Positions 2,952-22,538 of a stretch of 60,546 bases of DNA are shown here, piece after piece (the stretch's first letter is position 1; each line of letters starts with the position of its first letter). The notes beneath the pieces are model-generated. The model had not been told where the DNA came from and did not search any database. It saw only the letters and a list, made by a program, of their open reading frames with translations. The position numbers were made by a program, and so were the translations under genes. This stretch comes from an uncultured Pseudomonadales bacterium (lineage in GTDB: Bacteria > Patescibacteriota > Microgenomatia > UBA1400 > CAYXSR01), in assembly GCA_964467735.1 (NCBI GenBank), contig CAYXSR010000005.1, forward strand, positions 1-60,546, read 5' to 3'.

Positions 2952-3317
2952 TTAGTCCCGTCTTTTTGGCGGGACTAAAATTTTTATTAACCAATAACCC
3001 AAATAAACAAATAATCCCAAGGCAATTAACAAAAAAAAGATTAACAATGATCTTGCTAAAAATCCCCATTCTTTTGGGGCTTTAATCAAAATCCTTAAAC
3101 CAGTAATAAAAACAAAACCAAAAGTAAAAAAATAGAAAGGTAAACCAAAAATTAAAAGTTCTTGCGATCGATCTTTTTCTAATATAATCTCTTTTAAGGT
3201 TTTAAACGGATGGAAAATTAAACCAAAAAGATTACGACTAAAAAGGTAGCTCTCCTTGATCGTCAGAAGAATCGAATATTTGCCAATTTTCATTAAAAAA
3301 GTTTTTATCTTTTGCAT
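2952..3317 (-). CDS. Small multi-pass membrane protein downstream of the ECF sigma (possible anti-sigma)
   Basis: 121 aa with 2-3 hydrophobic segments; overlaps the 3' end of the sigma gene. Confidence 0.65.
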   Translation of the reverse strand: MQKIKTFLMKIGKYSILLTIKESYLFSRNLFGLIFHPFKTLKEIILEKDRSQELLIFGLPFYFFTFGFVFITGLRILIKAPKEWGFLARSLLIFFLLIALGLFVYLGYWLIKILVPPKRRD

Positions 3318-3858
3318 TTAACTGTTTTGAATATTGTTTTTGAAAAGCAACTCGCGCTCTGAATAAAAGCGATTCTGTTGACTTAATGCTTTTACCTAAA
3401 ATATCAGCAATTTCTTTTACTGTTTTCTCTTCTATATACTTTAGTCGTAAAATTCGACAATATCCTTCGGATAAACTCTTAAAAGTTCTTAAGATTCTGC
3501 TTTTTATTTCTTTTTCCTGAAGAGCTAATTCTGGACTCAACGCCTTAGAAACTAATTTTTCCAAAAAGGGAAATTTAGAAAAGACAATCGTTTTTATTTT
3601 CTTTTTACGATAAAAGTCGCAAATTTCATGCCTAGTTATTGAACACAACCAGGTATAAAGTGAACTTTTAGCGGAAAAATTAGGTAAAGATAAAAAGGCA
3701 GAAGTAAAAACATCTTGAAGAATTTCTTCACTGTCCTGAAGATTCCCTACTTTTTTTTTAATAAAACCTAAAAGTTTTGCTTGATATTTTCTATAAAAAA
3801 TCCTGTGCGCTTTTTTATTACCGATTAAAATTTGATTAATTAATTTTTCTTCCTTCAT
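3238..3858 (-). CDS. ECF (sigma-70 group 4) RNA polymerase sigma factor
   Basis: Region 2: EEILQDVF and SSLYTWLCSITRHEICDFYRK. Region 4: LRLKYIEEKTVKEIADILGKSIKSTESLLFRAR. Confidence 0.92.
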   Translation of the reverse strand: MKEEKLINQILIGNKKAHRIFYRKYQAKLLGFIKKKVGNLQDSEEILQDVFTSAFLSLPNFSAKSSLYTWLCSITRHEICDFYRKKKIKTIVFSKFPFLEKLVSKALSPELALQEKEIKSRILRTFKSLSEGYCRILRLKYIEEKTVKEIADILGKSIKSTESLLFRARVAFQKQYSKQLNAKDKNFFNENWQIFDSSDDQGELPF

Positions 3859-6503: not shown

Positions 6504-8051
6504 ATGAAGTTAAAAAATTTTGTTTTTCTAGTTATTGGTTTTCTTTTTTTATTGTCGGCTTCTTTCTTTCCTGTTTATGCCCAAGGCCTCCAACAACAAA
6601 TTAAAGATACGCCTTTTAAAGAATTTCTTGATGCTTCAGCTAAAGGAGAAGAGGGCTATCTTAATAAACAATGGTATGATAAAGAAACTTTTATAAATAT
6701 TATTGCTGCTGGTGCGGCAGCTTCGGCTACTGTTCAACCAAACGAAGATGGAACAGTTACTGTAAGCGGTGCTGTTCCCCTTATGGGCAGAGCAATTAGT
6801 GAATTGACTGGCACTCCGGCAGTTAGCAGTGTTGAGTATTTTGCTGATATTGGCAGTCGATTAAATTTAGTTCCTCAGGCTTATGCTCAAGGAACTGGTT
6901 GGCGGGCACTGGCTCCAATTTTAAGCATTTGGAAGGCTTTTCGAAATTTGGCTTATATATTTTTTGTGGTTGTCTTTATTGTGATTGGTTTTATGATTAT
7001 GTTCCGGGCAAAAATTAACCCTCAAACCGTTATTTCTATTCAATCAGCCCTTCCCAAAATTATTGTCACTTTGCTTCTAATTACTTTTTCCTATGCAATT
7101 GCTGGTTTGTTTATTGATTTTATCTATATTCTTATTTATATTGTCGTTGGTCTTTTTGAATTTACCGATCTTGTTTCTAACTCCACGGAAGTTGTCAGAA
7201 GACTGCTAGAAGATAATCTCTTTCAAATTATGTACGCTGGAAAAGGCATCTTTATTACTGGGCCAGCGGAGGCAATTCAAGATGTGATTGCCGGACTCTT
7301 AGGAGAAGGAGTTTTTGGGGAATTTTTAGATTGGTTAGGAGTAGATAACTTTGGCGGCAGTATTTTAGCTCATCTTATTATCGCCGCAGCTTTGCTTTTT
7401 GTTGTTTTTAAACTATTTTTTACCCTCTTACTTACCTATGTTGGTATTATTGTTTCAGTTATTTTTTCGCCAATTATTCTTTTGTTTAATGCTTTACCAG
7501 GTAGTAATAGTTTTGGTAATTGGGTTAAAAGTCTTTTAGCTAATATTTTAGCTTTTCCAGCAGTGGCTTTAATGTTTTTACTGGCGGCCGTTATTATTGG
7601 TAACCGGACCAACATGAATCCTCCTTGTGATCCAGGCTGTTCTAAGGATAACCCTTGGTGTGTAGAATGTGATGTTGGCTACTTTAGCCAAAGGACGCTT
7701 GATCTTAGGGCTGGCCAAGAAACCGGCTCTGGAGAATCGGAGGTTTGGGTACCACCTTTTTTAAGTTTGTTTACTAGAACTGGCAGTACTGGCGGTACTG
7801 GTCCAATTATGTCAATTATTGCTTTGGGAATGATTTTCATGACCGCTCAAGTTCCTGCCATGATTAAAAAAGTCATGGGTGTTGAGGAAGGTGCTGGCGC
7901 GATGGGCTTCCAGGCAATTGCTGGTGGTATTGCTGCTCCATTCCAAACTTATGGCGCATATAAACAATATCGTGAGCAAAGACGAGCCAGGATGCTAACT
8001 GAGGCTCAACTTAACGCTTACAAAGAACGAGGCACTGGCCTAGGTGCATAA
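6504..8051 (+). CDS. TrbL/VirB6-like polytopic membrane protein
   Basis: Multi-TM core (WKAFRNLAY...PKIIVTLLLITFSYAIAG...IFSPIILLFNALPG...WVKSLLANILAFP) with a Gly/Ala-rich tail, following the pilin array. Confidence 0.72.
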   Translation: MKLKNFVFLVIGFLFLLSASFFPVYAQGLQQQIKDTPFKEFLDASAKGEEGYLNKQWYDKETFINIIAAGAAASATVQPNEDGTVTVSGAVPLMGRAISELTGTPAVSSVEYFADIGSRLNLVPQAYAQGTGWRALAPILSIWKAFRNLAYIFFVVVFIVIGFMIMFRAKINPQTVISIQSALPKIIVTLLLITFSYAIAGLFIDFIYILIYIVVGLFEFTDLVSNSTEVVRRLLEDNLFQIMYAGKGIFITGPAEAIQDVIAGLLGEGVFGEFLDWLGVDNFGGSILAHLIIAAALLFVVFKLFFTLLLTYVGIIVSVIFSPIILLFNALPGSNSFGNWVKSLLANILAFPAVALMFLLAAVIIGNRTNMNPPCDPGCSKDNPWCVECDVGYFSQRTLDLRAGQETGSGESEVWVPPFLSLFTRTGSTGGTGPIMSIIALGMIFMTAQVPAMIKKVMGVEEGAGAMGFQAIAGGIAAPFQTYGAYKQYREQRRARMLTEAQLNAYKERGTGLGA

Positions 8052-8064
8052 ATTATTTTCTCCT

Positions 8065-8167
8065 TGAATAAAAAAACAGAAAAGCTGGAAGTTAAAACTT
8101 CTTATTGTGGTGATCAACACAATAATCGCCTAAAGCGACAGCTTTCCCAAGATAGATCACTTATTCA
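8065..8167. ncRNA. Unassigned highly structured element: enclosing stem + perfect four-way junction + pseudoknot
   Basis: P1 8065-71/8161-67; P2 8081-87/8139-45; P3 8088-91/8098-101; P4 8102-09/8118-25; P5 8126-29/8135-38; PK 8110-15/8155-60. All 36 pairs are Watson-Crick. Strand is not determinable. Confidence 0.6.
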
Positions 8168-8209
8168 GTTTGTCTGCTTCTCAAAAGGACCGCTTCCTTC
8201 GGCTCAGTC

Positions 8210-8371
8210 CTACCCCCGTCCAAGCATTCCCTTGACCAGGGGGGCTACGAACGCTCCTACCACCGCCACCCCAAAAATGAAAAGGATGGACCCACAACAG
8301 CCAGCAAGCCCCCACTCTGTAGTTGCCATAATCACGATATACATGGCAACAAAGAGAAGCAAGGTTTCCAT
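8210..8371 (-). CDS. 53-aa hydrophobic membrane peptide (METLLLFVAM...GMLGRG)
   Basis: SD GAGGAGG just upstream of ATG 8371 within ORF-track frame 8210..8578; two hydrophobic helices. Confidence 0.6.
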   Translation of the reverse strand: METLLLFVAMYIVIMATTEWGLAGCCGSILFIFGVAVVGAFVAPLVKGMLGRG

Positions 8372-8388
8372 CACATCCTCCTCTAGGT

Positions 8389-8598
8389 TTATTTCCACCA
8401 TGAACCTTTTCCAATGGCGTAAATGACTAGTCCTATCACTAGTCCTACCAAAAGAAAAACTCCACCGATCAGATAGGACACCGCGCCGTACTCTGGTGGT
8501 GCAACAAAGAAAAAATAGACGATGCCGCCGCCCCAGCAGTACAGTAGGGCTGCAACAACTAAAACAACCAACAACCAAAATCCGATGCCACTTCCCAT
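8389..8598 (-). CDS. 69-aa two-TM membrane peptide
   Basis: SD AGGAG 7 nt upstream of the ATG; two hydrophobic helices and a basic C-terminus (GKGSWWK). Confidence 0.65.
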   Translation of the reverse strand: MGSGIGFWLLVVLVVAALLYCWGGGIVYFFFVAPPEYGAVSYLIGGVFLLVGLVIGLVIYAIGKGSWWK

Positions 8599-8623
8599 TT
8601 CCGTTCTCCTTTTTAAGGTGCTC

Positions 8624-8651
8624 GTCTACCCGCCATCAGAGGCGGGCAGGC
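8624..8651. repeat. GC-rich palindromic hairpin (GTCTACCCGCC-atcaga-GGCGGGCAGGC), REP-like
   Basis: 11-bp imperfect inverted repeat in an otherwise AT-rich leader. Confidence 0.5.
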
Positions 8652-8719
8652 AAAAACTGAACAATTCTTTTTCTTTCTATCCAAACGCCATTGTTTGGAA
8701 AAGAAATAAGATTGACGGG

Positions 8720-8748
8720 ATTATATAGTTAAAACCATTATAAATCAA
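8720..8748 (-). promoter_or_regulatory. Sigma70 promoter TTGATT-N17-TATAAT for the small-peptide operon
   Basis: -35 at 8743-8748 and -10 at 8720-8725 on the minus strand. Confidence 0.6.
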
Positions 8749-8833
8749 TACATATCCTATATGAATCTTACTTGCATGAAAAAATTTGGAAGTTTGTTTT
8801 ATAAAACTATAAATATTTAAATTCTATCAATGG

Positions 8834-11800
8834 CTATTGAACGGGCCATTTTTCACCAGTTGAATACTCATAAATTGTCTTGAAAAATCCTTTAACCGCA
8901 TCAGCAATCCCCCCGAAAAAACCAAAGAAACGATATTGAGCCATTTTCCAAGGACCTAAAACATACCAGCAATAAGCCTCAAAATTCCACGCATTGGTAA
9001 TTTTCGCCCTTATTCTGTCTCTTAAATCTTTTGGTTTCAGACTAAATTCTGGAGGAACATCAACAAAAAAATCTCTAGCCAATTTCCGAAGCAGAAAAAC
9101 CTGGCTGTCTATCGGAACAATATGACCAGCCATTACTGTTTTTACTGTTTCTATAGAAAGTTGGTCATTTCTATTAGCCCAAAAATCTTCTTGTTCTTCA
9201 ATTAAGCCTATACCTTCTAAAAGGCCATGACCAATTCTAAAAAATAAGTTTTTTTCCGGGGGAGACCCTGGAAGCACTGCTGGAAGTTGAAAGCTTTCAG
9301 AAATAAAATTCAGTCTTTTAAGTTTATTTACTGTCTCCTCTTCTACGCTTTCCATTGGTTCAAGTAATATTTCTCCCAACAAACCAGATGCTGCTTGAAC
9401 TCCTAAAAGTTCGTTGTGCCAGTCAACTGGGTGGGTGGCTTTTTTTTCAGCCGCCAACTTATCGCCCAAAAGCGAAATTGACTCTAAAGCTTCCAATTGA
9501 TCTTTGTGAGCTTCTCTATTTGTCAATGCTCCATCCACACCTCCTACTGCCTCATATTCAAAACTCATTGGTCTTAAATAATGATTTTCTGCATCCCAAT
9601 AATCTTTATGTTTAAGACTTTCGCCAAATTCAAAGGACATAAAGTCCCTTGCTTCAGTTAAAATTCTATCCCAACGTTCTCTAAGGCTTGATCCATAAGT
9701 AAAACCCTTCCGCCAATAGTTAAAATCAACGTTCATTATTCCTCTTATTTGAGCGTCCCATTCTCCTCGTCGGGAAAATTCCATCACTTTTCTTAAAATA
9801 CTGAATTTCCGCTCTAACTCTATTGCTTGTTCTCTTGAAACCTTTCTTTTGGCTTTAACAGAAGTAATTCGTTGATGATAATCAGGATCTCTTTCGATAT
9901 TCAGTAAAAACTCACCATGCTCTATATCTCCATTCTCATAGAAAGCACTGATTGCTTCTCTAAACTGCTCTGGTGCATTCCTTCCATACCACTCATATTG
10001 AAGAGGGTTATCGTTATATTCATCACTCCATTTTGCTTTGATTCTCCCATCCCTGTCTTTCTCTTGTTCTTCTGCTCGACTAAAACCGCTAAAACGAGCG
10101 TCTAAAACAGCAAATCTGCCGGTCCAACGTAGAAAATCATAAGACCACTCAATATCCCCGCTAGTTACCCATTCGCCATCTTTTAAGTTTGGTCTACCAA
10201 TTATTTCTTTTATTTTTTCTCTATCAAAATCATAGACGCCTCTTCTTTTATCAAAAAGTTTTTCTCCAAAAAGACGAACTAAAATTTGCCGGTCAGTATT
10301 TCTTAATTCAACATCTCGATTGCTATTAGCATTATTAATAATTGTTTCCAGCCATTTGTTAACTCTTCCCCTTGTATCCTCTTTAAATTTCTCTACCCTG
10401 TCTGGTCGCTCACCCAAAGCTAAATATTTTAAAACTTCATCTGGGTGTTCAGAAAGTTCTGCCCAAGCAAGTTTGCACCACCATTGCTGACCAAACCAAG
10501 CCATTTCTTTACTCGTGAAATAAGGCAAGGCTTTTAGTCTATCTTCAACATGCTGTTGAATACCTCCTACTTTAAAAGCAGAAATAAAGTTTAATTTAGC
10601 TCTAAACATTTTGGTTAATCGATCAAAAAGTTCTTGATTCTTGCCAGTCTCGAACATTCCTGTTTGATTGCGATACATACTAGCCACTTCTGTATAGGCT
10701 AAAGTTAAAATCTGAAAATAGGTTGAACTTTCTGGGCTTGGCTGTCGGGCTTCGTCTAACATTTGCTCAAACCACTCTTCTACTGTCTCTGGATTTCTAA
10801 GTGTTTTTATATCTATTTCACTTAACATTAAATTCAAACGACTACTCTCATATCTTCTGCCATACATTTCCTTTATAGCGTCGCGGGCAAAATCATCTCG
10901 TCCTGTCTCGAAAGATTTTCTAAAAGCTGCCATCTGTTCAGGAGTAACCCCTCTTCTTAAATTTGCCTGAACTAAGGCATCGTAAGCTTTGTCAATCGGG
11001 AGAACATCACCATAGAGACCAATCTGAAGTAAAGATTTTTCTTCCTGCACTCGATTAACTAAACGAATCATTTCATCATATGCTGCTTGTTGTTCTGATC
11101 GAGGTTTAAACTGACTCATTGCCTCCTGGAGTCTCTGGCTGGCTTGTTCTAATTGCCCGGCTAAAAATGGATTAACTAATTGATCTCTGAATGACTGCAC
11201 TCCTGGCCTAAGTCGGTCATCTAAAGCGACCCTTAATTCTTCATCCCTTCTCGTAAGGTCGGCTTTTTTCTCAATTGACAAAAGCCTAAGTTTTTCCATG
11301 GCTGGTAGAAAAACCTTGTTTAATTGCTCTCTAGCGGCAGGACTAATTTTTCTTCCTCTTAAAACCACTTGTACTCTTTTATAAAGATCTTCGGCATAAT
11401 CTGATGATATAAGTTCATAACCAAGCTCATCTAAATGAATTACTTCTGCGGCAATATCTCCTAAAGGATCATCTTTCTCAAGAAGTTCAAGTGGACTACC
11501 TAGTCCCTTTGCTGCTCTCCATGCTTTTTCCCAATTTTTTCCTTTTCTAGTTATTAAAACCTCCTCACCTATTTTGTCTTTTTCCTCCTTAGTAAGCCAC
11601 CATTGTCTGGCTTTTTCTAATCGTTTTTGCTCTTCTCTCTTATTTCCTTCTAACGCTTGTTTAGCAAGTCTTCTTAAAATTCTCTCTGCTGATTTGTCTT
11701 TACCTTCTCTTAACAACTGGGCCACTTTTTCTGGGGTCTCTCCTAATTTTTTCATTTCTTTTTCCAATTGTCGGGGAGTTAATTCAGTTGTTCGCAAAGC

Positions 11801-12586
11801 TAATGCAGCCTGAGGAATTAAGGCTTCTGCCTTGGCTTTGGCCTCTTTTACTCTCTCTGACAAGGAAGCTTTTTCTCTTGCCTCACCAATTCTTTCTCTT
11901 AATCTATCTGGTTTTTCGCTAGCTTTTTCTTCTAATTTTTCTAGACCTACTTCTTCTCCAAAAAGTTCATAACTTGCCCTTTCAACTAATTCTACTGCCT
12001 CTTTAGGAGGAGCCTCTGTAGCTCTTTCAGTTTTCAATTTCTCTTGCTGTCCACTAATCTCTTTTGTTAATTCTTTTCTTTCTTCTTTAGATAAGGTTAT
12101 TTCTGTAGATCTTGAATATTGAAGTTGGTTTCTCAAAACTGTTAATCGTTCTTGAACTTGAGCATTGTTAGTCGCGTTTTGTGACTCCCAAGCTTTTTCT
12201 CTTTGTTCTCTTGTAAGAAATCTTTCTAGTTCAGCAACCCTATTTCTCTCTCCAAAAATCAATCCGGCGATTTTCTTAATTAAACTCACTGCATCTTTAG
12301 GAGGCCTATCAGTTTCTTGCTTTTTGGCTAATTCTTTTTCTTTTTCTTCTAATTTTTGATAGGCTTCTGCCTTTTCTTCTGGAGATAACGAAGTTGAGAC
12401 ATCTATTTGTGATTTTAAAAAATTCAATCTTTCCTGAGCTTTGGTAATTGTATTAACATGAGCTCTTCGCCACTCTTTCTCTTCTCTTTTTCTGGTTTCC
12501 CTTTCTGTTTCACCACTAGTACCACCACGTTCAACACCACCGCCTGTTGGAGTAATTGGAGTTGGACCAGGATCTGTCATTAACAT
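8834..12586 (-). CDS. 1250-aa uncharacterised charged helical protein with N-terminal internal repeat
   Basis: Long uninterrupted ORF, rich in E/K/R, SD AAGGA. No enzyme motif recognised. Confidence 0.85.
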   Translation of the reverse strand: MLMTDPGPTPITPTGGGVERGGTSGETERETRKREEKEWRRAHVNTITKAQERLNFLKSQIDVSTSLSPEEKAEAYQKLEEKEKELAKKQETDRPPKDAVSLIKKIAGLIFGERNRVAELERFLTREQREKAWESQNATNNAQVQERLTVLRNQLQYSRSTEITLSKEERKELTKEISGQQEKLKTERATEAPPKEAVELVERASYELFGEEVGLEKLEEKASEKPDRLRERIGEAREKASLSERVKEAKAKAEALIPQAALALRTTELTPRQLEKEMKKLGETPEKVAQLLREGKDKSAERILRRLAKQALEGNKREEQKRLEKARQWWLTKEEKDKIGEEVLITRKGKNWEKAWRAAKGLGSPLELLEKDDPLGDIAAEVIHLDELGYELISSDYAEDLYKRVQVVLRGRKISPAAREQLNKVFLPAMEKLRLLSIEKKADLTRRDEELRVALDDRLRPGVQSFRDQLVNPFLAGQLEQASQRLQEAMSQFKPRSEQQAAYDEMIRLVNRVQEEKSLLQIGLYGDVLPIDKAYDALVQANLRRGVTPEQMAAFRKSFETGRDDFARDAIKEMYGRRYESSRLNLMLSEIDIKTLRNPETVEEWFEQMLDEARQPSPESSTYFQILTLAYTEVASMYRNQTGMFETGKNQELFDRLTKMFRAKLNFISAFKVGGIQQHVEDRLKALPYFTSKEMAWFGQQWWCKLAWAELSEHPDEVLKYLALGERPDRVEKFKEDTRGRVNKWLETIINNANSNRDVELRNTDRQILVRLFGEKLFDKRRGVYDFDREKIKEIIGRPNLKDGEWVTSGDIEWSYDFLRWTGRFAVLDARFSGFSRAEEQEKDRDGRIKAKWSDEYNDNPLQYEWYGRNAPEQFREAISAFYENGDIEHGEFLLNIERDPDYHQRITSVKAKRKVSREQAIELERKFSILRKVMEFSRRGEWDAQIRGIMNVDFNYWRKGFTYGSSLRERWDRILTEARDFMSFEFGESLKHKDYWDAENHYLRPMSFEYEAVGGVDGALTNREAHKDQLEALESISLLGDKLAAEKKATHPVDWHNELLGVQAASGLLGEILLEPMESVEEETVNKLKRLNFISESFQLPAVLPGSPPEKNLFFRIGHGLLEGIGLIEEQEDFWANRNDQLSIETVKTVMAGHIVPIDSQVFLLRKLARDFFVDVPPEFSLKPKDLRDRIRAKITNAWNFEAYCWYVLGPWKMAQYRFFGFFGGIADAVKGFFKTIYEYSTGEKWPVQ

Positions 12587-12605
12587 TTTCCTTTCTTAAG
12601 AAGAT

Positions 12606-12635
12606 ATTATATCAAAGAAGTCAGTCAACATCCAA
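12606..12635 (-). promoter_or_regulatory. Promoter TTGGAT-N18-TATAAT with extended -10 (TGaTATAAT) for the 1250-aa gene
   Basis: -10 at 12606-12611, TG at 12613-12614, -35 at 12630-12635. Confidence 0.5.
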
Positions 12636-12637
12636 GC

Positions 12638-13813
12638 TTATCTTCTTCCTTCTTCCGGAAGAACTTGTTGAAGAAAAACAGCTGAAAAAAGTTTACACCA
12701 GCTGGTAAATTTATCAGTTGCTTTTACTGGAAAATTAATTACTTCTCCTGTTTTCTTAATTACTCTCTGGGTGGTTCCTATTTTCTCAACCTTGCCTAAA
12801 AATTGCTCGGCCGCGGCAATTAGGTTTTCTTCTGACGTTTCTCGGGAATTCCTTTTTAATTCTCCGCCAACCCATTTTTGAAAGAATGAACTTAAAATAA
12901 CTTTTTTCACATCCCAAATGTTGGCCGGTGTTAAATCAAGTTTATCAGTTAAAATCTCTATTGCCTTGCCTGTTAATTCATTTATCTGAAGATCTTGAAG
13001 TTCAACAGTTAAGCGTCGTCTTTCTACCTCATTCAATCCACTTAAATTAGCGTGTTTCATTAACCAATCAACTAATTTTGCTTTTGTTTCTTCTAATTTT
13101 GTCTTTCCTGCCTCAGTGGCTGTTTGCTGACCTTGCTCATCAATAACTGTCTCTATCTGTTCATCTAATAATTCACCAGCTTCCCTTCCTTCCCATTCGC
13201 TTACTAAACTTTCATATCCTTTAGTTTTTCTAAATTTTTCCTGAATTTCTATTGGTATTCTTTCCCAACTAACACCCCCCTCTGCCTCACTTTTTCCCAA
13301 AAGATTAGCTGCTATTCCGGCTAACTGTTGATCAGAAATTTCTGTTCCCGGTTGAAAATTCTCTATAAAAGCTTTCCAAACGGCTGTCGATTCTGGCCCA
13401 GCAGAATCCTGAGCCTCCGATAAGAAATGGTCAGTTGCTTGTTGCTCTAGAGCCTCCAACCAGGTAACTCTATTATCTGCTCTTGTTGCCGGATTTCCTT
13501 CTGTCGCCTGCTCTCCTAGCTGAGGATATTTATCTAATAATTCTTGCCTTAGTCCTTCGTCTCTCATTACCTCCCGGAAATCTCCACCTTCTACCAATTG
13601 ACCTAATGAACTTCTAAATGTTAAAAAAGCTTGATAAAAAACATCAAATTTTCCCGGATCAACTTCTGCTGCCTTTCTATTGGAAAAATGGTCTGGAGTT
13701 TCTGTTTCTGTCCCAACTAAACCAACAAAAGAGGTCTCGACATCAACTAACAATTTTTCTGGTGTTTTTAAAGAAGTTTTTTCAACTTGAACTGGAACTT
13801 CGGCGGTTTCCAT
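12638..13813 (-). CDS. 391-aa uncharacterised acidic helical protein
   Basis: Long ORF coupled to the upstream gene (TAATAATG). No known motif. Confidence 0.8.
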   Translation of the reverse strand: METAEVPVQVEKTSLKTPEKLLVDVETSFVGLVGTETETPDHFSNRKAAEVDPGKFDVFYQAFLTFRSSLGQLVEGGDFREVMRDEGLRQELLDKYPQLGEQATEGNPATRADNRVTWLEALEQQATDHFLSEAQDSAGPESTAVWKAFIENFQPGTEISDQQLAGIAANLLGKSEAEGGVSWERIPIEIQEKFRKTKGYESLVSEWEGREAGELLDEQIETVIDEQGQQTATEAGKTKLEETKAKLVDWLMKHANLSGLNEVERRRLTVELQDLQINELTGKAIEILTDKLDLTPANIWDVKKVILSSFFQKWVGGELKRNSRETSEENLIAAAEQFLGKVEKIGTTQRVIKKTGEVINFPVKATDKFTSWCKLFSAVFLQQVLPEEGRR

Positions 13814-13815
13814 TA

Positions 13816-14040
13816 TTACTCTGTCATTTGTTGAGCTGTTTGCTTCATGTCATCAGCTGCTTTATCCAAAATATTGGCCGATCTGTCTAAATTATCTGCT
13901 CTTAGTTTTAAAAAGCTCAATATCTGTCCTTGAATTTCTGGGTTGTCTCCCTCTGCTTCAATTGTTTTTAAAAGAGTTTCCTTTGTTTTTTCATCTAAAG
14001 GAAGATTTTTAACTTCCTCTAATAATTGATTTTTGTCCAT
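13816..14040 (-). CDS. 74-aa helical hypothetical protein
   Basis: SD GAGAGG; tightly packed in the operon. Confidence 0.7.
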   Translation of the reverse strand: MDKNQLLEEVKNLPLDEKTKETLLKTIEAEGDNPEIQGQILSFLKLRADNLDRSANILDKAADDMKQTAQQMTE

Positions 14041-14065
14041 ATTTTCCTCTCTTTTTAATTTGATT

Positions 14066-14977
14066 TTATGGTTGAGTTTCTGTTTCTGATATCACCCCTA
14101 AAGCAATTCCAAAACCTCTTAATTCATACTGAAGTTGTTCTTTTAATTGTCTATATTCTTCTGTCTGTCTGAACTCTCTTAAATCAGAATATCTAGATTT
14201 GTCTCTATTCCGAGAGAGTAATCCGAGCTTGGCAGCATTCTGTCTTTTTCTTTCTAAATATTTTGCTTCTGCTTGTTGTTGTCTTTCCGCTTTTCTTAAG
14301 GCTTTTGCTTCTCTTCGTTCTTTTTTACTTAAAATCGCCAGTGGTCGGCGTTCTTTTTTTCCAGCGGCGGCTTCCAGTCCCTCAGGAATTTCAACAAGCT
14401 TTGCACCGCCTTCTACCGCCTGGTTAACAGTTTGTCTAATTGTCTGTGCCGCTTCTCTCCTTGTTAAAGCTTCTTGTCTTAAAAATTTTGCCTGTCTTTC
14501 TGTTTGTCGCCTGACAAAGTCAAAAAATTCTTTCCAAAACGGTTTTTCTGCGGCTCGAGCTTTTTTTTCTAAACCCTTTTCTTTAACATCAAGTTTTTCT
14601 GCTCTTGTCTCTTGGATCTGAGCTCTCATTTCTTTACCGATTGCTCCAATAACCTGCGGTCGTGTTTCTATCCAAGCACCAGAATATTCCATCGCTGTTT
14701 TCAACCATCTAGTTCCACTACCAATAAGTTCTGGTGTACCAGCTACTACACAAGCAGCTGTCTTTAATGCTTCTATTGCTTTTACTACTCTTCCTGCTCC
14801 TACTTGGCCAGCTTCTTCAACTGCTCTGCTAACCTCTGGTTTTCCTGGTTTCTTTACTGGACCTTGTTCTACTGTCGCTTCCTGGGTTACCACTGGCTCT
14901 TGTTGGGTCTCGGGGCGAGCCAAACCTGGCGCTAGTGGTTCATTCACTTGAGGAGTAGCTGTTTGTGTCTCGGTCAT
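14066..14977 (-). CDS. 303-aa coiled-coil hypothetical protein with T/E/P-rich N-terminus
   Basis: SD GGGAGG; first gene of the reverse-strand cassette. Confidence 0.8.
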   Translation of the reverse strand: MTETQTATPQVNEPLAPGLARPETQQEPVVTQEATVEQGPVKKPGKPEVSRAVEEAGQVGAGRVVKAIEALKTAACVVAGTPELIGSGTRWLKTAMEYSGAWIETRPQVIGAIGKEMRAQIQETRAEKLDVKEKGLEKKARAAEKPFWKEFFDFVRRQTERQAKFLRQEALTRREAAQTIRQTVNQAVEGGAKLVEIPEGLEAAAGKKERRPLAILSKKERREAKALRKAERQQQAEAKYLERKRQNAAKLGLLSRNRDKSRYSDLREFRQTEEYRQLKEQLQYELRGFGIALGVISETETQP

Positions 14978-15078
14978 TTTTCCTCCCTTTCTAAAAAACT
15001 AAATAGAGTCTTTCTTTCATTGTGAATATTACTTATCTTTTTTTCAATAGCTAATTTTTTTATGCTAAGCTTAAACTA

Positions 15079-16278
15079 ATGAAAAATTTTTGGGAAAGTT
15101 TAGAAAGCTTTGTTTTTGCTATTTTTTTATTTCTTCTTCCTTCTAATTTAGCTTTTCATTGGTGCACCTCCTCAGCTTTGGTTTTAGGTATTTATCGCGA
15201 TTATCTGATTCCCACTATTTTTGTGACAGATTTCCTAATCATTACTCTTTTCCTACTTTCTTTTTTTTCAAAAACAAAAATTTGTTTACCCAAAAAAACT
15301 ATTTTTTTTGTTTTTTTGTTAATTTTCTTTGTTTTTATTAGCCAAAACAAAATTAGTGCTAGCTATAAAGCCCTAAAAGTTTTTGAATGTTTTTTGCTTT
15401 TTTACTGGTTAAAAAGCAAAAAAGTAAGTCAGCAAAAAATAATTAGGATTTTATTCTGGACAGCTTGTTTTCAGGCAGGGTTAGCAGTTTTTCAATGGCT
15501 TAAACAAAGTTCGGTTTTAAGCTATCTTCCTTTTGGTGAACAACCCTTCAACAGCTTCACTCCAAACATAAAAAAAATTGTTTTACCCAATGGTAAACTC
15601 AGAATTACTCCTCTTGGAACTTTTCCTCATAGCAATGTTCTGGCTGGTTTTTTAGTTTTAGTTTTAACCATGAATTTAAAATCATTGAATAAAATCTGGC
15701 AAATCTTTTTTTACCTCCTAATTAGTAGCGCCCTTATTCTCTCCTTCTCGTTGCCAACAATATTCCTTTTTTCTTTGATTATTATTTTGATTCTGTTTAA
15801 AAACAAACAGAAATTACTTCTTAGCTCTCTTTTTTTATATTCGTTTGTATTTGGTTTAATATTCAACCAAGATATTATTTCTTCTTTGAACCGTCGTCTG
15901 CCGTTAATTAAAAGTGCTTTTTTAATGATTAAAGATAACTTTATTGTAGGAGTAGGTTTAAATAATTTCTTGGTTAAATTACCAAAATATATTTCTGGTT
16001 CGCAAGTTTATTTTTTCCAACCAGTTCATAATTTGTTTCTTCTTCTTTTGGCTGAAACAGGAATTATCGGCTTATTAATCTTTTTATTTTGGATTTTGAA
16101 ATCCCTTCGTTTCCTCAAAAAAGGGTTTAAAAAAAATTCTCTTTTTATTCTCTTACTAGTCGAGTGGTTTTTGTTAGCTCAATTTGATCATTATTTTTAT
16201 ACCACTCAACAAGGATTATTAATAACTGTTATTGTTTTTTATCTTGTTTCTTTAATTAAGGCAAAAGATTACAATTAA
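15079..16278 (+). CDS. O-antigen ligase-like (Wzy_C) membrane protein, possible O-oligosaccharyltransferase
   Basis: GTFPHSNVLAGF, RR...A..MIKDNFIVGVGLNNF, PVHNLFLLLLAETGIIG, FDHY. Leaderless promoter TGcTAAGCT at 15063-15071, 7 nt before the ATG. Confidence 0.85.
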   Translation: MKNFWESLESFVFAIFLFLLPSNLAFHWCTSSALVLGIYRDYLIPTIFVTDFLIITLFLLSFFSKTKICLPKKTIFFVFLLIFFVFISQNKISASYKALKVFECFLLFYWLKSKKVSQQKIIRILFWTACFQAGLAVFQWLKQSSVLSYLPFGEQPFNSFTPNIKKIVLPNGKLRITPLGTFPHSNVLAGFLVLVLTMNLKSLNKIWQIFFYLLISSALILSFSLPTIFLFSLIIILILFKNKQKLLLSSLFLYSFVFGLIFNQDIISSLNRRLPLIKSAFLMIKDNFIVGVGLNNFLVKLPKYISGSQVYFFQPVHNLFLLLLAETGIIGLLIFLFWILKSLRFLKKGFKKNSLFILLLVEWFLLAQFDHYFYTTQQGLLITVIVFYLVSLIKAKDYN

Positions 16279-16281
16279 TTA

Positions 16282-17022
16282 ATGTCATTATTTGGATTAT
16301 TTTTAATTTTTGTTGGTCTTCTAATCTTTCTTTTGCTTATATCTTTAAGTTTTCAAAAAAACTTTTATCTCTTTCTCCTTCTTTTAACTAAGAATAAATA
16401 CCAAGCTGTCCATCTATTTTCCCTTTTTCTTCTTCCTGGAACAATTATTCATGAAGTTGCTCACATGTTGACAGCGGAAATCCTCCAAGTTCCTACTGGT
16501 GAATTTTCGTTTATACCAGAAATTAAAGAAAGCCAAGAAGTAAGAGTGGGTAGTTTAAAAATTAGTCGTTCTGGGCTAATTAGACGAACGCTAATTGGCT
16601 TGGCTCCGTTAATAATAGGTTTGGCTATCCTTACAACTATTTTCTATTTCCAATTTCTTCCATTGCTTCAAAATCCACAAGAAATTTTTAATCAGAAAGC
16701 GGGCTTCTGGTGGCTGGCAGTTTTTTCTTGCTGTCTTATCTTTATTGTCTCTAACACTATGTTTTCCTCTAAAAAAGACCTAGAGCCTGCTTTCTTTCCT
16801 TTTCTTTTAATCCTCTTGGTTCAAATAGCTTTCTGGTTAGGAGGTATAAAACTCAAAATCTCTTTAGAAGAAAAAACTTATATTTTTTTAGCTAATGTCT
16901 TAACAAGTATTAATAGCGCTTTAGTTTTTACTATCGTTGTTGACTTAATTTTTCTTTTAGCTACTCAACTACTCATTCAAATTTCTAAAAAAACTCTCAA
17001 AAGCTCTTTATCTTTTAAATAG
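16282..17022 (+). CDS. M50-like intramembrane zinc metallopeptidase
   Basis: LPGTIIHEVAH (HExxH), LIGLAPLIIG and later SKKD; multi-TM. Confidence 0.7.
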   Translation: MSLFGLFLIFVGLLIFLLLISLSFQKNFYLFLLLLTKNKYQAVHLFSLFLLPGTIIHEVAHMLTAEILQVPTGEFSFIPEIKESQEVRVGSLKISRSGLIRRTLIGLAPLIIGLAILTTIFYFQFLPLLQNPQEIFNQKAGFWWLAVFSCCLIFIVSNTMFSSKKDLEPAFFPFLLILLVQIAFWLGGIKLKISLEEKTYIFLANVLTSINSALVFTIVVDLIFLLATQLLIQISKKTLKSSLSFK

Positions 17023-17057
17023 CCTAATTGTGGCTTTTTTGGTATCATATATAACAA

Positions 17058-20000
17058 ATGGATTCTTCTTTACTTCAACAAGCACAAGAGGTTTTAAAAG
17101 CAATTGATGAATGGCTAAATTTTATTGATTCTCAACAACCAATAACTTCACAAAAAGAAGCTAGTTTAAAATCTTTAATCGAACCATTTACTAAAACTCC
17201 AGCTTTTTCTTTGTTTTTTAGTAATGTTTTTTTCCCGGTTTTAAACGAGACAGAAAAAACAGTTGCCTCCTTAGAACCAAATTCTCAAAATCTAACTCTT
17301 ATTCGTCAAGCAATCACTGCTTTTATCTTTCAGGACAATCTTCCCTTTGAACAAACTGGTTTACCTTCCAGAGAAGTTCTTGAACAAGCGGCTTCTCAAG
17401 TTCAACAAGTTGATCCTCAAAATAGCATTAGCGTCCGTCAAATAGTTCGCCAAACAATTGAACAACACAACAAAGATTTACTAGACAAAGCTGGCAGCGT
17501 CGTTCAGCTTCAACAATCACTTCAAAAGAATTCTGAAGTTGCTTTAGCCGCCATCTTGGCTCAAGAGCCAAGCGACCAGCGTTATCGAAGTTCTCAGCTT
17601 AAAAGACAACGGCAACTCGCCGATACCTATGGGCCAATTGCTGCCCAAGTCGCTTTTGAAAGATATACCGACAGTTTAGTCGATAGTTATTCTGCTGAAT
17701 TGGAAAAACAACAAACTATTCAAAACAAAAGAGTTCAAAAAGGAGAAATTGATCAACTTACTGCCGATCGTCAAGCACAAGAAACTGCGAGTGAGCGCGT
17801 CCAACAATCAGCTTCCTTACTCCAAACTAAGGCCGCCCAGGCCGCCGTTAAAGAAATTAGTAAATATAGTGATTCAAACATTACTTTACAAGGTTCTGTT
17901 GCGGTTACGATCCAAGCTTCACCTGAAGTTGCTCCAGTTGTTGAAAGACTAGATAGAAAAACATATCTTCAAAGAACAATCGAGTTGGCTTTAAATGCTA
18001 GTAGAATTCATCAAACACCCTCTCAAATAATTGCCCAAAAACAAGAATTAACTCGGTTAAAAAATACTCGACTTTTCCAAAGTTATGTTGCCCCTCAAAG
18101 AGATGAACTTACCACTAGATTACAAGCCTTTTATACTAATCAAGTTTATTCTCTTATTCCTCTGGAAAAACAAACAGAAGCCTTGGAAGCAATACCAGCT
18201 TTAATCAACCAACAAATTAATTTAATAGAACAAAGACTGGGTGATGAATTAATTGATTCAGAAGTCTTACCGCAAGCTAAAGTCTCTCAAAGCATTGATC
18301 GAACAACTGAAAAAGTTCTTCAAAAGATCGTTCAAGATGCAGGTTTGACTGTTGATTATCCATCCCGAGATCCAAATGAACCTCTACCTTCCAACACGAA
18401 AAGTTATTTTGAAATAGAACAAGCGGCTGGCCAATTAACTCAAGAAGTTGAAGGTGACGCGCATGCCTTTTTCAATCTTAATTTCCGAGCCAGTAAAATC
18501 GAAGACCTTCCTCAATTAACAACTTTACAAGCTCTTAATACTCTACCAAGAAAAAATTTACCGCAAGTTGTTTTCAATGCCGCTGGACAACCAGGATCAT
18601 TAACTGAAATCCAACTTCTCCGATTAAGCAATAGTTTGGATGCTGATTTCACTACTCTTAAATTTTATTTAAATGGTCACACCTCACAAACTTTAACCAA
18701 TCTGGCGAAAAGCTTAGAAGATGGTTTTTCCATTGGTGATCTTACCCTAATCAAAAAACTTCATCCAAATGATCCGCGTTTATTAAAAATAAGAGAATTA
18801 AGCACCCAGCTGGGAGAGCTGGAAAAATTAATAAAATCTGGAGATATAAAACTGAAGGGTTTAAATAAATTATTATTCTCTGTTTTTCAAGCCCGAGCCA
18901 CTATAAACAACGCTAAATACAAAATTTATGATCGGGTTTTCCGTCTTAATCCTTTCCGCCCACTTGCTTTTGGAAAAGATTTTATCTCTCAGAAAATCTT
19001 TGATAAGAAAAATTTTATTGAAAAACAAATAAAAGATCATAAGGTTTTAGGTTTTCTTTATCCTCGATTTAAAAGCCGACAAGCTTGGAATAATTTTTTA
19101 AAAAAACATGACAAACTTGCTAAAGTAGTTAAATTTCTCCCTAACTTAAGCCCAAGTGGCTTGTGGGATCTGGGGAAAAGAAAGGCTTTCTCCTGGTTAA
19201 GAAAAAAAGCAGTTGATAAGGCAGCTGCCTACCTTATTAAAAAAGGCTTTGATAAAGCAGCAGAAGAGTTAGTAAAAAATGGCTTTAAAGCTCTTTTGAA
19301 ATTTGCTGTTAAGGAGGGTTTGGGATCAGTAGTTGGTGGTGCTCTTGGTTCTATTATTCCTGTTCCTATTCTTGGCACGGTTTTAGGAGCTGTTGCTGGT
19401 TGGGTTATAGAAAAAGCCGCTATTCTTCTTATTAAATATAATCCAGTAACTTTGCTAGCAAAAAAGGGTTGGCAGCAGCTTTCTCCTGGAACCAGAAAGG
19501 TAATTACTATTGGTGGAGTTGGTTTGCTTCTTGCCACTCCTCTTATCTCTTTGTTTTTCACTTCTCTTCCTGTTCTATTAATGGCTGGCGGTGCCTTAGG
19601 AGCAATCTTTTTCATCTATAAAAGCTTTTCCTCTATTGGCGGTTTTATCTCTAATGTCTTTAATGGTTTGGGTAAAGGGTTAAGCTCTGTTATACAAGGA
19701 GTTTCTCATGCTGGAGCTCAAGTTGGAGCGGTTTTAGCAAATGCCGCCCCTGTTGCCTTAGCAGTTACTGGCACTGGAACCATGATTACTCTGGCAAGTT
19801 TTTATTCTGCTTGGGTTTACCCATGGGGAGAACCAAGAGGAGTAAAACCTTTTGAATCTCGCTATATAAGAATTGAAAAAAAGGCTAACAAAAATCAATT
19901 TTCTAATCTGGAAGTCGCCGTTCCTCGAACTATTACTTATACTGTTACGATTACTCCAAAACAAGACGCCTTAACTAATATCCAAATAGAAGACAGTCTT

Positions 20001-20723
20001 TCTTTAGAGAGCTTAGCAGGTGAGCCCCCAAAACCAACGTTAACCCTTGTCAATCCTCAAGAAATTCCCACAATTATTGATAAAGAAACTGTTTTAACTT
20101 ATCAGATCAGCAATATTGATAGTCGTTACCAAGACACTAGAATTAGAAATACTTTCAAGCTAACTGCTCTTGTAGGAAAAACAACTGAAACAGTAGTTGC
20201 AACCGAAAAAGTAGAAATCGGCAATCCTCCTCGTCCAACTACTGTTCAAATGGCAATTGATGTCGTTAACATTCTTCTCAATTGTCAAGGTCTTGAACCA
20301 TCAAAAACCAATGGTGTTATTGTCAATAAAAGCAGTTGGTCAACAGCCAAAAATTGTTTAAAAACAAAAGGATTAGAACAGGATGTGTTAGACGAATTTC
20401 AGTCTAGTATTCAACGATTTGATAATCTACAATGTGTTGGTTTTGTTCTGGGAATAAGTCAGGGCTCTTTACTTCCTCCTAGCGGTCACGCTAAGGCCTA
20501 TTGCAGTGAACCTAATCTTCAAACTGACTGGACCCAAGTAGCTGAAGGTGATTATATTGCTTCAAGCAAAGGCCAATATGGTCACGTCGCAATTGTTATA
20601 AATGTTGACGGTGTGATTGTTAAGGTTGCTGAAGCTATGGGAGATACCGGAATTGTCCAATTTAGAAATCTCACTAAAGAAACTTTAGAACAATATTATT
20701 GCGGCTTTTTAAGAACAAACTAA
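17058..20723 (+). CDS. Giant membrane-anchored protein with glycine-zipper/TM region, Ig-like domain and C-terminal CHAP amidase (VirB1/CwlT analogue)
   Basis: QCVGFV (Cys1126), GHVAIV (His1176), VAEA (Glu1192). Extended -10 TGgTATCAT lies 9 nt before the ATG. Confidence 0.75.
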   Translation: MDSSLLQQAQEVLKAIDEWLNFIDSQQPITSQKEASLKSLIEPFTKTPAFSLFFSNVFFPVLNETEKTVASLEPNSQNLTLIRQAITAFIFQDNLPFEQTGLPSREVLEQAASQVQQVDPQNSISVRQIVRQTIEQHNKDLLDKAGSVVQLQQSLQKNSEVALAAILAQEPSDQRYRSSQLKRQRQLADTYGPIAAQVAFERYTDSLVDSYSAELEKQQTIQNKRVQKGEIDQLTADRQAQETASERVQQSASLLQTKAAQAAVKEISKYSDSNITLQGSVAVTIQASPEVAPVVERLDRKTYLQRTIELALNASRIHQTPSQIIAQKQELTRLKNTRLFQSYVAPQRDELTTRLQAFYTNQVYSLIPLEKQTEALEAIPALINQQINLIEQRLGDELIDSEVLPQAKVSQSIDRTTEKVLQKIVQDAGLTVDYPSRDPNEPLPSNTKSYFEIEQAAGQLTQEVEGDAHAFFNLNFRASKIEDLPQLTTLQALNTLPRKNLPQVVFNAAGQPGSLTEIQLLRLSNSLDADFTTLKFYLNGHTSQTLTNLAKSLEDGFSIGDLTLIKKLHPNDPRLLKIRELSTQLGELEKLIKSGDIKLKGLNKLLFSVFQARATINNAKYKIYDRVFRLNPFRPLAFGKDFISQKIFDKKNFIEKQIKDHKVLGFLYPRFKSRQAWNNFLKKHDKLAKVVKFLPNLSPSGLWDLGKRKAFSWLRKKAVDKAAAYLIKKGFDKAAEELVKNGFKALLKFAVKEGLGSVVGGALGSIIPVPILGTVLGAVAGWVIEKAAILLIKYNPVTLLAKKGWQQLSPGTRKVITIGGVGLLLATPLISLFFTSLPVLLMAGGALGAIFFIYKSFSSIGGFISNVFNGLGKGLSSVIQGVSHAGAQVGAVLANAAPVALAVTGTGTMITLASFYSAWVYPWGEPRGVKPFESRYIRIEKKANKNQFSNLEVAVPRTITYTVTITPKQDALTNIQIEDSLSLESLAGEPPKPTLTLVNPQEIPTIIDKETVLTYQISNIDSRYQDTRIRNTFKLTALVGKTTETVVATEKVEIGNPPRPTTVQMAIDVVNILLNCQGLEPSKTNGVIVNKSSWSTAKNCLKTKGLEQDVLDEFQSSIQRFDNLQCVGFVLGISQGSLLPPSGHAKAYCSEPNLQTDWTQVAEGDYIASSKGQYGHVAIVINVDGVIVKVAEAMGDTGIVQFRNLTKETLEQYYCGFLRTN

Positions 20724-20742
20724 TTGTTTAAAATTAATTAGA

Positions 20743-21321
20743 ATGAAATTATTAAAATTCTTAAATAGAAAAATCATTTATCTCCTAGTTTTTCTTATTT
20801 TCGTTCTTGCTATTGTTAGTTTATTTTTAAAACAAGAGCTTCGTATTGTTGAAGCTCAACCAACAGTGACCAATAATATTGATCTCGATCAAAAATTTGA
20901 ATTTATTTTTAATAAAAAACCAGAAAATATTGTCGTCGTTACTTCTCCGGAATTTAATTTTGACAAAATAATTGATGAAAAAAAATTGCTTCTGATTCCC
21001 CAAGAAATGCTTAAACAAAACAGTTACTATACTTTAAATATATATCAAAAAGAAAAACAGCTTTTTAAAAAAACTTTTAAAACCAGAGTGGGAACAGAAA
21101 CAGAAGTGATTCAAGAAGAAACTAGTTTTACTTTCTCAAAATATCCTTTAATTGATTTTTTACCTATCGACAATCCCCGATACCATCTTACTTATGCTGA
21201 TTCCCTTGTCTTAAAAGTAACCATTAAACAAGGTTCTCAAGAGCAAATTAGGCAAGAAGTTATTGATTGGATTTCTTCAAAAGGGATCGATCCAAACACT
21301 CACCAAGTCATTTTTGAATAA
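20743..21321 (+). CDS. Single-pass membrane protein with Ig-like (Big_5/SbsA-like) domain
   Basis: N-terminal TM followed by VEAQP...IFNK...PQEMLKQNSYYTLNI...FKT pattern. Confidence 0.6.
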   Translation: MKLLKFLNRKIIYLLVFLIFVLAIVSLFLKQELRIVEAQPTVTNNIDLDQKFEFIFNKKPENIVVVTSPEFNFDKIIDEKKLLLIPQEMLKQNSYYTLNIYQKEKQLFKKTFKTRVGTETEVIQEETSFTFSKYPLIDFLPIDNPRYHLTYADSLVLKVTIKQGSQEQIRQEVIDWISSKGIDPNTHQVIFE

Positions 21322-21406
21322 AATTGATATATTCTTATACCTTTTCAAATTTTTTCCTGCCTTGTATACTGGAAATAATCAATAATTTAGAAATGCTCTA
21401 AAAATT

Positions 21407-22534: not shown

Positions 22535-22538
22535 TACT

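Follow-up and report, generated by a model that had tools for sequence, protein, structure and literature searches.

The locus described here raises the question of what a large soluble protein, encoded beside the channel gene of a type IV secretion system (T4SS) and on the opposite strand, does for that system. The window, by which we mean the whole stretch of 60,546 nucleotides (positions 1 to 60,546 of contig CAYXSR010000005.1, assembly GCA_964467735.1), comes from an uncultured, ultrasmall bacterium placed by GTDB in the Patescibacteriota, lineage Microgenomatia. Between a VirB6-like gene and the remaining T4SS genes it carries four co-oriented minus-strand open reading frames (ORFs) of 303, 74, 391 and 1250 amino acids (aa), whose products are called p303, p74, p391 and p1250 below. 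An earlier note on this DNA had located the four ORFs correctly and had read them as an inserted cassette of candidate effectors or translocators. We find that p1250 fills, in this genome, a slot of the T4SS locus that is ancestral and fixed in place, and that the three smaller genes are most plausibly accessories to the slot protein which differ from lineage to lineage. p1250 itself may be a T4SS substrate or translocator served by such helpers, a reading that we favour tentatively and at somewhat less than even confidence.

The T4SS is essential for epibiotic growth in S. epibionticum, the single Patescibacterium with genetics (PMC10633639), and the substrates of this essential system are unknown (PMC10633639, PMC12102498, PMC12857230). 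The machine lacks a coupling protein close by, a relaxase and any known effector. The slot class, which has no known fold or domain and is synthesised in the cytoplasm, is always found next to the VirB6-like channel gene and diverges faster than any other gene of the locus; it offers the most concrete lead to what the machine moves or touches. If p1250 is cargo, it is the first candidate substrate of a secretion system of the candidate phyla radiation; if it is a part of the machine, it stands for a new class of T4SS subunit specific to monoderm, pilus-bearing systems. No description of a large soluble protein convergent with a VirB6-like gene, or of the helper genes, was found in the literature.

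Occupants of the position facing the VirB6-like gene

The neighbourhood of the VirB6-like gene was compared in two samples. One consisted of 28 order-level relatives. For the other, a VirB6-like profile was run against the GTDB species genomes, which gave 518 relatives, and 80 of these loci were fetched; they are referred to as the named loci and come from Beckwith-, Chisholm-, Collier-, Woese-, Curtiss-, Gottesman-, Shapiro- and Pacebacteria. The VirB6-like protein has no Pfam match, and its assignment therefore rests on a topology of eight transmembrane (TM) segments together with its position. VirB6 homologues have been described as scarce in Microgenomatia (PMC10633639, PMC12102498), whereas homologues of the protein used here were found in 37 of 41 relatives and at 518 GTDB loci. 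Many metagenome-assembled genomes in GTDB with this locus (L049, L050, L055 and others) are titled Pseudomonadales, Gammaproteobacteria, Bathyarchaeia or Clostridia, which are evident automatic mislabels.

A gene convergent with the VirB6-like gene, encoding a TM-poor protein (0-1 TM) with 24-37% charged residues, was present in 28/28 order-level relatives, and its product was 790-1306 aa long in 26 of the 28. The exceptions, L028 and L044, have a protein of 248-500 aa in first place and behind it, in the same orientation, a giant one of 2122 or 1821 aa. Among the named loci, 48 had at least 4 kb of sequence downstream; the next gene was convergent in all 48, and in 41 of them the slot protein had at least 700 aa and at most one TM segment. 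Given this uniform convergent arrangement, the cassette cannot be called inserted, as the earlier note had it; the slot is an ancestral and conserved part of the locus.

The occupants of the slot are very diverse. When slot proteins of 46 named loci were compared all-versus-all with phmmer, 25 of the 1035 pairs were detectable and the proteins fell into 26 clusters, as against 1035 detectable pairs out of 1035 for the VirB6-like proteins of the same loci. Across the same genomes identity is 60-73% for VirB4 and 30-50% for the VirB6-like protein, and the slot class thus evolves far faster than the machine genes. No Pfam domain was found in 33 slot proteins. A single slot superfamily was also considered, and the profile-profile links joined only family A with G001 (which, together with the genus of the window, makes up its GTDB family) and family B with L029 and family C; a common origin is unproven.

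Part of the class shares an ending made of an aromatic-x-GP motif, a hydrophobic helix and a charged tail. It was seen at 14 of the 46 named loci and is of TM grade in several families; the ending is amphipathic in p1250 and TM-like in G001 and in the L022, L023 and L029 families, where, as in others, the 15-residue Kyte-Doolittle mean exceeds 2 and the feature of a tail anchor is present. A second type of ending, a Gly/His tail (…GGH, …HH, …GGGGGHGGGHGGH), occurs at 7 of the 46 (L080, L083, L093, L096, L105, L106 and L122). The C-terminal hydrophobic helix is therefore not a universal feature of slot proteins or their partners. Gly/His-tailed slot proteins were also noticed at L031, L033, L038 and L041. 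The proteins with this tail are otherwise unrelated, and it might serve them as a common C-terminal signal or as a tag that binds metal.

The slot gene stands alone at 27 of 41 loci. Co-oriented helper genes accompany it at the other 14, and their products are nearly all soluble and unrelated between lineages. Since the slot gene is alone in two thirds of the loci, we regard the three smaller genes of the window as helpers rather than as parallel effectors. What stands of the earlier proposal is the linkage to the T4SS; the four proteins are not equivalent, as only p1250 falls in a widely conserved slot class. At L043 the co-oriented ORF upstream of the slot gene (L043:5207-6265) ends in what looks like an rve-like transposase/integrase core (…HHDRIHESLADQTPSQV), and an insertion sequence element probably landed in the variable region there.

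Homologues of p1250 itself are few. Out of 1.84 billion representative proteins, a full HMMER search picked as relatives only P0002, with 975 aa and E 7e-38, and P0003, with 1154 aa and E 6e-25. G001 has a 1154-aa homologue (hhalign 98%, E 2e-13), and a metagenome scan gave only the sister species, represented by two metagenome assemblies from the same series of samples. There was no match in 40 order-level relatives, in 400 class-level genomes or in a GTDB pattern scan, and a word-index search returned p1250 only. In G001 a 304-aa homologue of p391 (blastp E 1.4e-12, phmmer E 4e-9) is encoded directly upstream of the slot gene. No relative of p303 or p74 was found beyond the sister species, including among the 80 named loci. 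p303 and p74 are accordingly genus-specific, and p391 follows p1250 to the level of the family. A kinship of p74 with 115-117 aa proteins of other loci was considered and rejected; they share LPLDEK, and the hhalign probability is just 9%.

Every homologue of p1250 and p391 sits in a T4SS locus and at the same position, and no housekeeping or cytoskeletal match appeared; the earlier note had named either kind of match, unlinked or housekeeping, as evidence against its proposal. At the loci of P0002 and P0003 a pilin array is followed by a ~780-aa protein, a ~500-aa VirB6-like protein and the large protein on the opposite strand, and the order continues with hydrolase, PrgI, TraC-like, VirB4, dnaN and dnaA genes or with giant soluble proteins. 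Two giants with at most one TM segment, of 2967 aa in G001 (L021:3330-12233) and of 2023 aa (L003:3484-9555), are homologous to each other (E ~1e-35), and each is accompanied, in a variable region adjoining the slot gene, by a homologous 108-117 aa protein; they have no counterpart in the window.

The five members of the p1250 family (window, sister species, P0002, P0003 and G001) can be aligned over a conserved C-terminal region of ~650 aa. Its motifs are YF..E..W...QWW.KLA, GER...VE, YDFLRW, DAR, RRGEW, LISE.F.FP and WYV(L/I)GP.K, where '.' means any amino acid. The last of these is present in four of the five members and reads FNVLG in G001; WYVLGP is invariant across the close p1250 family. 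The C-terminal window has a mean Eisenberg hydrophobicity <H> of 0.50, is amphipathic and stays below the TM threshold, and p1250 therefore does not qualify as a tail-anchored protein.

The N-terminal third of p1250 is variable and coiled-coil-like. It contains a tandem internal duplication in which each copy, a module of ~75 aa, consists of a helix, PPK(D/E)AV and an amphipathic helix ending FGE...LE; the local alignment of the two copies scores 118, compared with a shuffle mean of 44 (sd 7), i.e. z = 10.5. A PP-containing module was seen once by eye in P0002 and in P0003 and is not significant (z ~1 or less).

The four genes and their products

The four ORFs were compared with their orthologues in the sister species. 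The ratio of nonsynonymous to synonymous substitution rates (dN/dS) is 0.17 for p303 (orthologue 311 aa, 69-72% identical), 0.04 for p74 (86% identical, the most conserved gene of the cassette) and 0.18 for p391 (74%). For p1250 (79% identical) it is 0.20 in the N-terminal part and 0.10 in the C-terminal part. The corresponding values are 0.12-0.14 for wzy, CHAP and prgI, and 0.03-0.06 for the VirB6-like, TrsD and pilin genes. The GC content at third codon positions (GC3) of the cassette, 0.23-0.25, is similar to that of the adjoining genes, and the codon usage of the four genes agrees with the host. With dN/dS between 0.04 and 0.20 and a neighbour-like GC3, the four ORFs are real, vertically inherited genes under purifying selection, and a recent horizontal insertion was rejected on this GC3 together with the conserved synteny.

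The sister species keeps the full cassette beside the same Wzy/CHAP/PrgI/TrsD genes, in the order 311 aa, 74 aa, 390 aa, an extra gene of 229 aa and the p1250 orthologue. The extra gene (L005:11226-11915), which separates the orthologues of p391 and p1250 and encodes a domain-less protein, has no counterpart in the window; its presence in the sister only shows gene gain or loss within the cassette. Between the stop codons of the VirB6-like gene and p1250 lie ~780 bp here (8052-8833) and ~180 bp in the sister (L004:2613-2790), so that a ~780-bp block is specific to the source genome.

Coordinates of the genes, signals and protein regions are collected in Table 1.

Table 1. Features of the cassette and its surroundings in the window (residue numbers refer to p1250).
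Feature	Position	Strand	Description
p303	14066..14977	-	303-aa ORF
p74	13816..14040	-	74-aa ORF
p391	12638..13813	-	391-aa ORF
p1250	8834..12586	-	1250-aa ORF; large soluble protein, convergent with VirB6-like gene
VirB6-like 8-TM protein	6504..8051	+	515 aa; anchor of the slot, convergent with p1250
Wzy_C / 5-TM protein / CHAP / PrgI / TrsD-like / VirB4 genes	15079-25321	+	other flank of the cassette
dnaN	25305-26429		Pfam match
dnaA	26723-28105		Pfam match
Intergenic region p303 / Wzy_C gene	14978..15078	.	divergent (p303 minus, Wzy_C plus); promoter-like site and p303 Shine-Dalgarno motif
Promoter-like site	15047-15019	-	TTGAAA-17-CACAAT; consensus match only, 9/12 positions
Shine-Dalgarno motif of p303	14987-14982	-	GGGAGG
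Shine-Dalgarno motif of p74	14051-14046	-	GAGAGG
p391-p1250 spacer	12587..12637	-	extended -10-like TGATATAAT and Shine-Dalgarno motif AAGGA
Related promoter site	12628-12601		from consensus scan
Extended -10-like site	12614-12606		TGATATAAT; read off the sequence
Shine-Dalgarno motif of p1250	12593-12589	-	AAGGA
Tandem internal duplication	11930..12442	-	residues 49-121 and 143-219
Conserved C-terminal region of the p1250 family	8837..10909	-	residues ~560-1250; alignments A1, A2, A5
WYVLGP motif and terminal helix	8873..8968	-	motif residues 1207-1212; helix FFGFFGGIADAVKGFFKTI, residues 1220-1238; 12-residue polar tail

Clear Shine-Dalgarno (SD) motifs precede p303, p74 and p1250. The fourth gene, p391, is taken as coupled to p74 because only 2 nt separate its start codon from the stop codon of p74 (TAA-TA-ATG). 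Both points had been noticed before, and the remark that such motifs are unusual in this genome was roughly right, as an SD-like motif is found upstream of ~20-25% of the long ORFs of the 794-kb genome, compared with 4-9% in a control window. The four genes probably form a single minus-strand operon, possibly with an internal promoter ahead of p1250. Given the -10-like TGATATAAT in the spacer, p1250 may also be transcribed independently, from a promoter of its own. Slot genes elsewhere must be transcribed alone at the 27 of 41 loci where they have no co-oriented upstream neighbour. Translation of p1250 probably begins at the ATG at 12580 (Met3): this start lies 8 nt from the SD motif, as against 2 nt for the annotated one, it agrees with the sister orthologue, which opens with MTDPG, and the gene call in the database has 1248 aa.

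TM segments and signal peptides were judged by the Kyte-Doolittle mean over 19 residues and by the polarity of the N-terminus. All four proteins have polar N-termini and maxima of at most 1.2, so that neither a TM-grade segment nor a signal-like hydrophobic N-terminus is present. Sequence and profile searches of Pfam, NCBIfam, PHROGs, PADLOC and PDB gave nothing significant or above a curated cut-off for any of them. The absence of signal peptides and domains described earlier was thus borne out, and so was the charged composition, 30-35% of the residues in each protein being charged. Paralogy was rejected: no two of the four proteins are related, and the rest of the genome encodes no paralogue of any of them. 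p1250 contains no Walker A motif (G....GK[ST]) and none of the four proteins matched the Pfam AAA or TraG families, so that p1250 does not pass as a P-loop NTPase of the VirD4, VirB4 or VirB11 kind.

p303 is basic (net +13, 33% charged), with an N-terminus rich in T/E/P/Q, a body rich in K/R/E and a C-terminus formed by GFGIALGVI and a polar tail. p74 is acidic (net -6). p391 is soluble and acidic (net -22), and its conserved C-terminal part closes with SWCKLFSAVFLQQVL and a charged tail. p1250 has 34% charged residues. The hydrophobic or amphipathic C-terminal segments that had been reported are real: no other 18-mer of p391 or p1250 is more hydrophobic than the C-terminal window (99.7th and 99.8th percentile), and that of p303 lies at the 96th percentile. 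For the helical character that had been assigned to all four, the evidence covers p391 and the C-terminal part of p1250, for which AlphaFold2 (AF2) gave low-confidence all-alpha models. Their predicted local distance difference test scores (pLDDT) are 40 for p391 (two sequences) and 36 for the p1250 region (alignment of four sequences), too poor for fold comparison. Judged by composition and these models, the p1250 class is probably all-alpha.

The T4SS genes on the far side of the cassette stand in the order Wzy_C, 5-TM protein, 1221-aa CHAP hydrolase, 192-aa protein, PrgI, TrsD/TraC-like protein and VirB4; dnaN and then dnaA come after VirB4, and an array of VirB2-like pilins precedes the VirB6-like gene. 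At least seven VirB2-like pilins lie in the window, identified as T4SS_pilin hits or as pilin-like by BLAST. VirB4 with its TraG P-loop, the TrsD/TraC-like protein, PrgI (VirB3-like), CHAP and the pilin array near dnaN and dnaA together mark a Patescibacterial locus of the MPF-FATA-like type (MPF, mating-pair formation), rich in pilins and close to oriC, of which the cassette is a dedicated part. An ECF-type (extracytoplasmic function) sigma-70 gene lies divergently beside the pilin array (3238-3858, minus strand). Such a gene stands in the same arrangement on both distant p1250 contigs (L002:19386-19928 and L003:20149-20694) and may encode a dedicated regulator of the locus.

Searching with the PF02534 profile gave only the housekeeping FtsK, and it had seemed that the genome has no coupling protein. 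PF12696 overturned this, as it found two TrwB/TraG-like proteins on contig C3. These VirD4-type proteins (781 and 726 aa, TrwB_AAD_bind and TraG-D_C above cut-off) are encoded at ~40.5-42.8 kb and 50.4-52.6 kb (L133:5490-7835 and 15382-17562, minus strand), far from the T4SS locus, with FtsH, a class I aminoacyl-tRNA synthetase, a Xer-type recombinase, pyruvate kinase and NrdD/NrdG as neighbours. No MOBP or MOBV relaxase was found, and other MOB classes were outside that search; the description of the T4SS as relaxase-less is upheld to this extent. Orphan coupling proteins without a relaxase, a pattern described as typical of these bacteria (PMC12102498), fit protein rather than DNA transfer.

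Cargo, machine part or ruler

That the operon belongs to the T4SS is very probable. An unrelated passenger is already disfavoured and very improbable, whether one thinks of a mobile insertion, of a module for defence or of the toxin-antitoxin type, or of housekeeping coiled-coil proteins: the lack of an assignable function for the four proteins, the strand opposite to the machine genes and the turnover seen in the extra 229-aa sister gene would suit it, but the synteny with the VirB6-like gene extends over the whole order and the named Microgenomates, GC3 is host-like, no integrase, transposase, PADLOC or PHROG match was obtained, no paralogue exists elsewhere in the genome and no homologue was found outside T4SS loci.

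The tentative reading of p1250 as substrate or translocator is favoured because of the hypervariability of the slot, the synthesis of p1250 in the cytoplasm, the availability of coupling proteins, the strong translation signals, the coupled acidic gene and the conserved C-terminus. Hypervariability of this kind is typical of host-facing proteins. p1250 has some generic features of a T4SS substrate in its linkage to the locus, its cytoplasmic synthesis without TM segment or signal peptide, and the presence of VirD4-type coupling proteins that could recruit it. Under this reading p1250 would be produced in the cytoplasm at a high level from its strong SD, and p391, p74 and p303 would act as helical, lineage-specific helpers by which it is kept soluble or targeted. 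It would then be passed to the T4SS, plausibly by way of one of the two orphan VirD4-like coupling proteins, and be exported as the signature substrate or translocator of the system. Its C-terminus, aromatic-GP followed by a hydrophobic or amphipathic helix, is predicted to be membrane-active and would engage the membrane of the host cell. We infer export, the contacts between helpers and substrate, and the membrane activity from sequence. The idea of p74 as a possible chaperone, put forward in the earlier note, draws on its size, acidity, strong conservation and coupling to p391. As helper candidates of the same putative operon, p391, p74 and p303 give handles for interaction tests.

Extended to the whole slot class, the proposal is possible and we hold it more loosely than for p1250 alone: the positional equivalents could be dedicated cargo or host-membrane translocators that are recruited by orphan coupling proteins, in some lineages with private helpers, and whose divergence would track the host cells.

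Several results weigh against export. The C-termini, a hydrophobic helix with a short polar or charged tail, match none of the known T4SS signals (BID, XVIPCD, Arg-rich, E-block), and no translocation-signal domain was detected by Pfam. Helpers are missing from two thirds of the related loci. Within-genus dN/dS values are unremarkable: at this distance they give no sign of positive selection, and they agree with those found for other accessory genes of the machine. The slot gene occurs once per locus, at a fixed position and in a fixed orientation beside the VirB6-like gene in all loci examined, as would be expected of a machine part. The C-terminal hydrophobic helix with its short charged tail recurs in 14 of 46 slot proteins, and where strongly hydrophobic it would anchor them in the membrane of the producer.

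The last three of these results support a second reading, doubtful but to be taken seriously, in which p1250 and its equivalents are a cytoplasmic, membrane-tethered scaffold or docking platform working with the VirB6-like protein, VirB4 and TrsD, and the helpers are assembly factors or subunits. Put in another form, which we consider similarly uncertain, the slot protein would be a trans-encoded counterpart of the hydrophilic helical domains of extended VirB6 proteins; the essential extended VirB6-like proteins of saccharibacteria, of 998 and 1088 aa and with ARM-like helical domains, lend it some weight. However, partners of so conserved a VirB4 (60-73%) and VirB6-like protein (30-50%) are unlikely to diverge beyond detection in 97.6% of pairs. 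p1250 has no TM-grade segment, loci with a longer VirB6-like protein (650-816 aa) still keep the slot gene, and no homology to the hydrophilic domain of VirB6 was detected.

By analogy, the slot protein might also be an exported ruler, tape-measure, plug or pilus-associated component whose sequence drifts freely, which we think unlikely. Its size is conserved, mostly at 800-1300 aa, despite the near-total loss of similarity; it looks all-alpha and lacks a signal peptide, and the locus is rich in pilins. Rulers and tape-measure proteins of type III secretion systems, flagella and phages share these properties. The range of lengths, 744-1821 aa, is broad for a ruler, however, and a membrane-active C-terminus is not ruler-like; the case is purely analogical, and we know of no ruler for any T4SS pilus. 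We therefore retain, as a tentative preference, the reading of p1250 as a substrate or translocator.

Comparison with known systems

LXG toxins of the type VIIb secretion system are large, helical, signal-less substrates preceded by one to three small helical Lap partners, which vary between lineages. p1250 differs from them in that it lacks LXG, WXG100, toxin and immunity domains, and the secretion system is a different one.

In the VirE1-VirE2 and CagF-CagA pairs a small partner gene lies beside a large, signal-less substrate encoded in the locus. The window resembles this layout, as p74 is acidic, lies upstream of p391 and is coupled to it, and p1250 is signal-less and encoded in the locus. 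VirE2 and CagA evolve fast and are unrelated to other proteins, and the same holds for p1250. The likeness of p74 is one of layout only, that of a small acidic partner placed upstream and coupled; no sequence similarity to the VirE or Cag families and no Pfam match was found, and the coupled pair is p74-p391 rather than p74-p1250. Unlike VirE2, p391 is acidic and not DNA-binding, and the Agrobacterium and Helicobacter systems are diderm with eukaryotic targets.

Extended VirB6 proteins (RvhB6, TraG of F/SXT, SEML1_0011/0013) tie a hydrophilic helical mass of ~500-800 aa to the VirB6 channel. The essential VirB6-like proteins of S. epibionticum, with their 998 and 1088 aa and ARM-like helical domains, are of this kind (PMC10633639; review PMC12857230). 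The genes listed there between PrgI (SEML1_0010) and the pilins are all co-oriented, and the convergent arrangement is absent (PMC10633639). p1250, by contrast, is no VirB6 domain: it is a separate, TM-free polypeptide whose gene lies on the other strand, and no homology between the two was detected.

A further comparison is with the MPF-FATA-like T4SS of Patescibacteria (PMC10633639, PMC12102498). Neither paper describes a convergent large soluble protein or its helpers. The window shares with these systems VirB4, a TrsD/TraC-like protein, PrgI, CHAP, a VirB6-like protein, pilins and the position at dnaN/dnaA, as well as distant coupling proteins with no relaxase found. Specific to this window are, besides the orphan coupling proteins and the tightly conserved p74, a small, alignable p1250 family with defined motifs and a conserved pairing of p391 with p1250.

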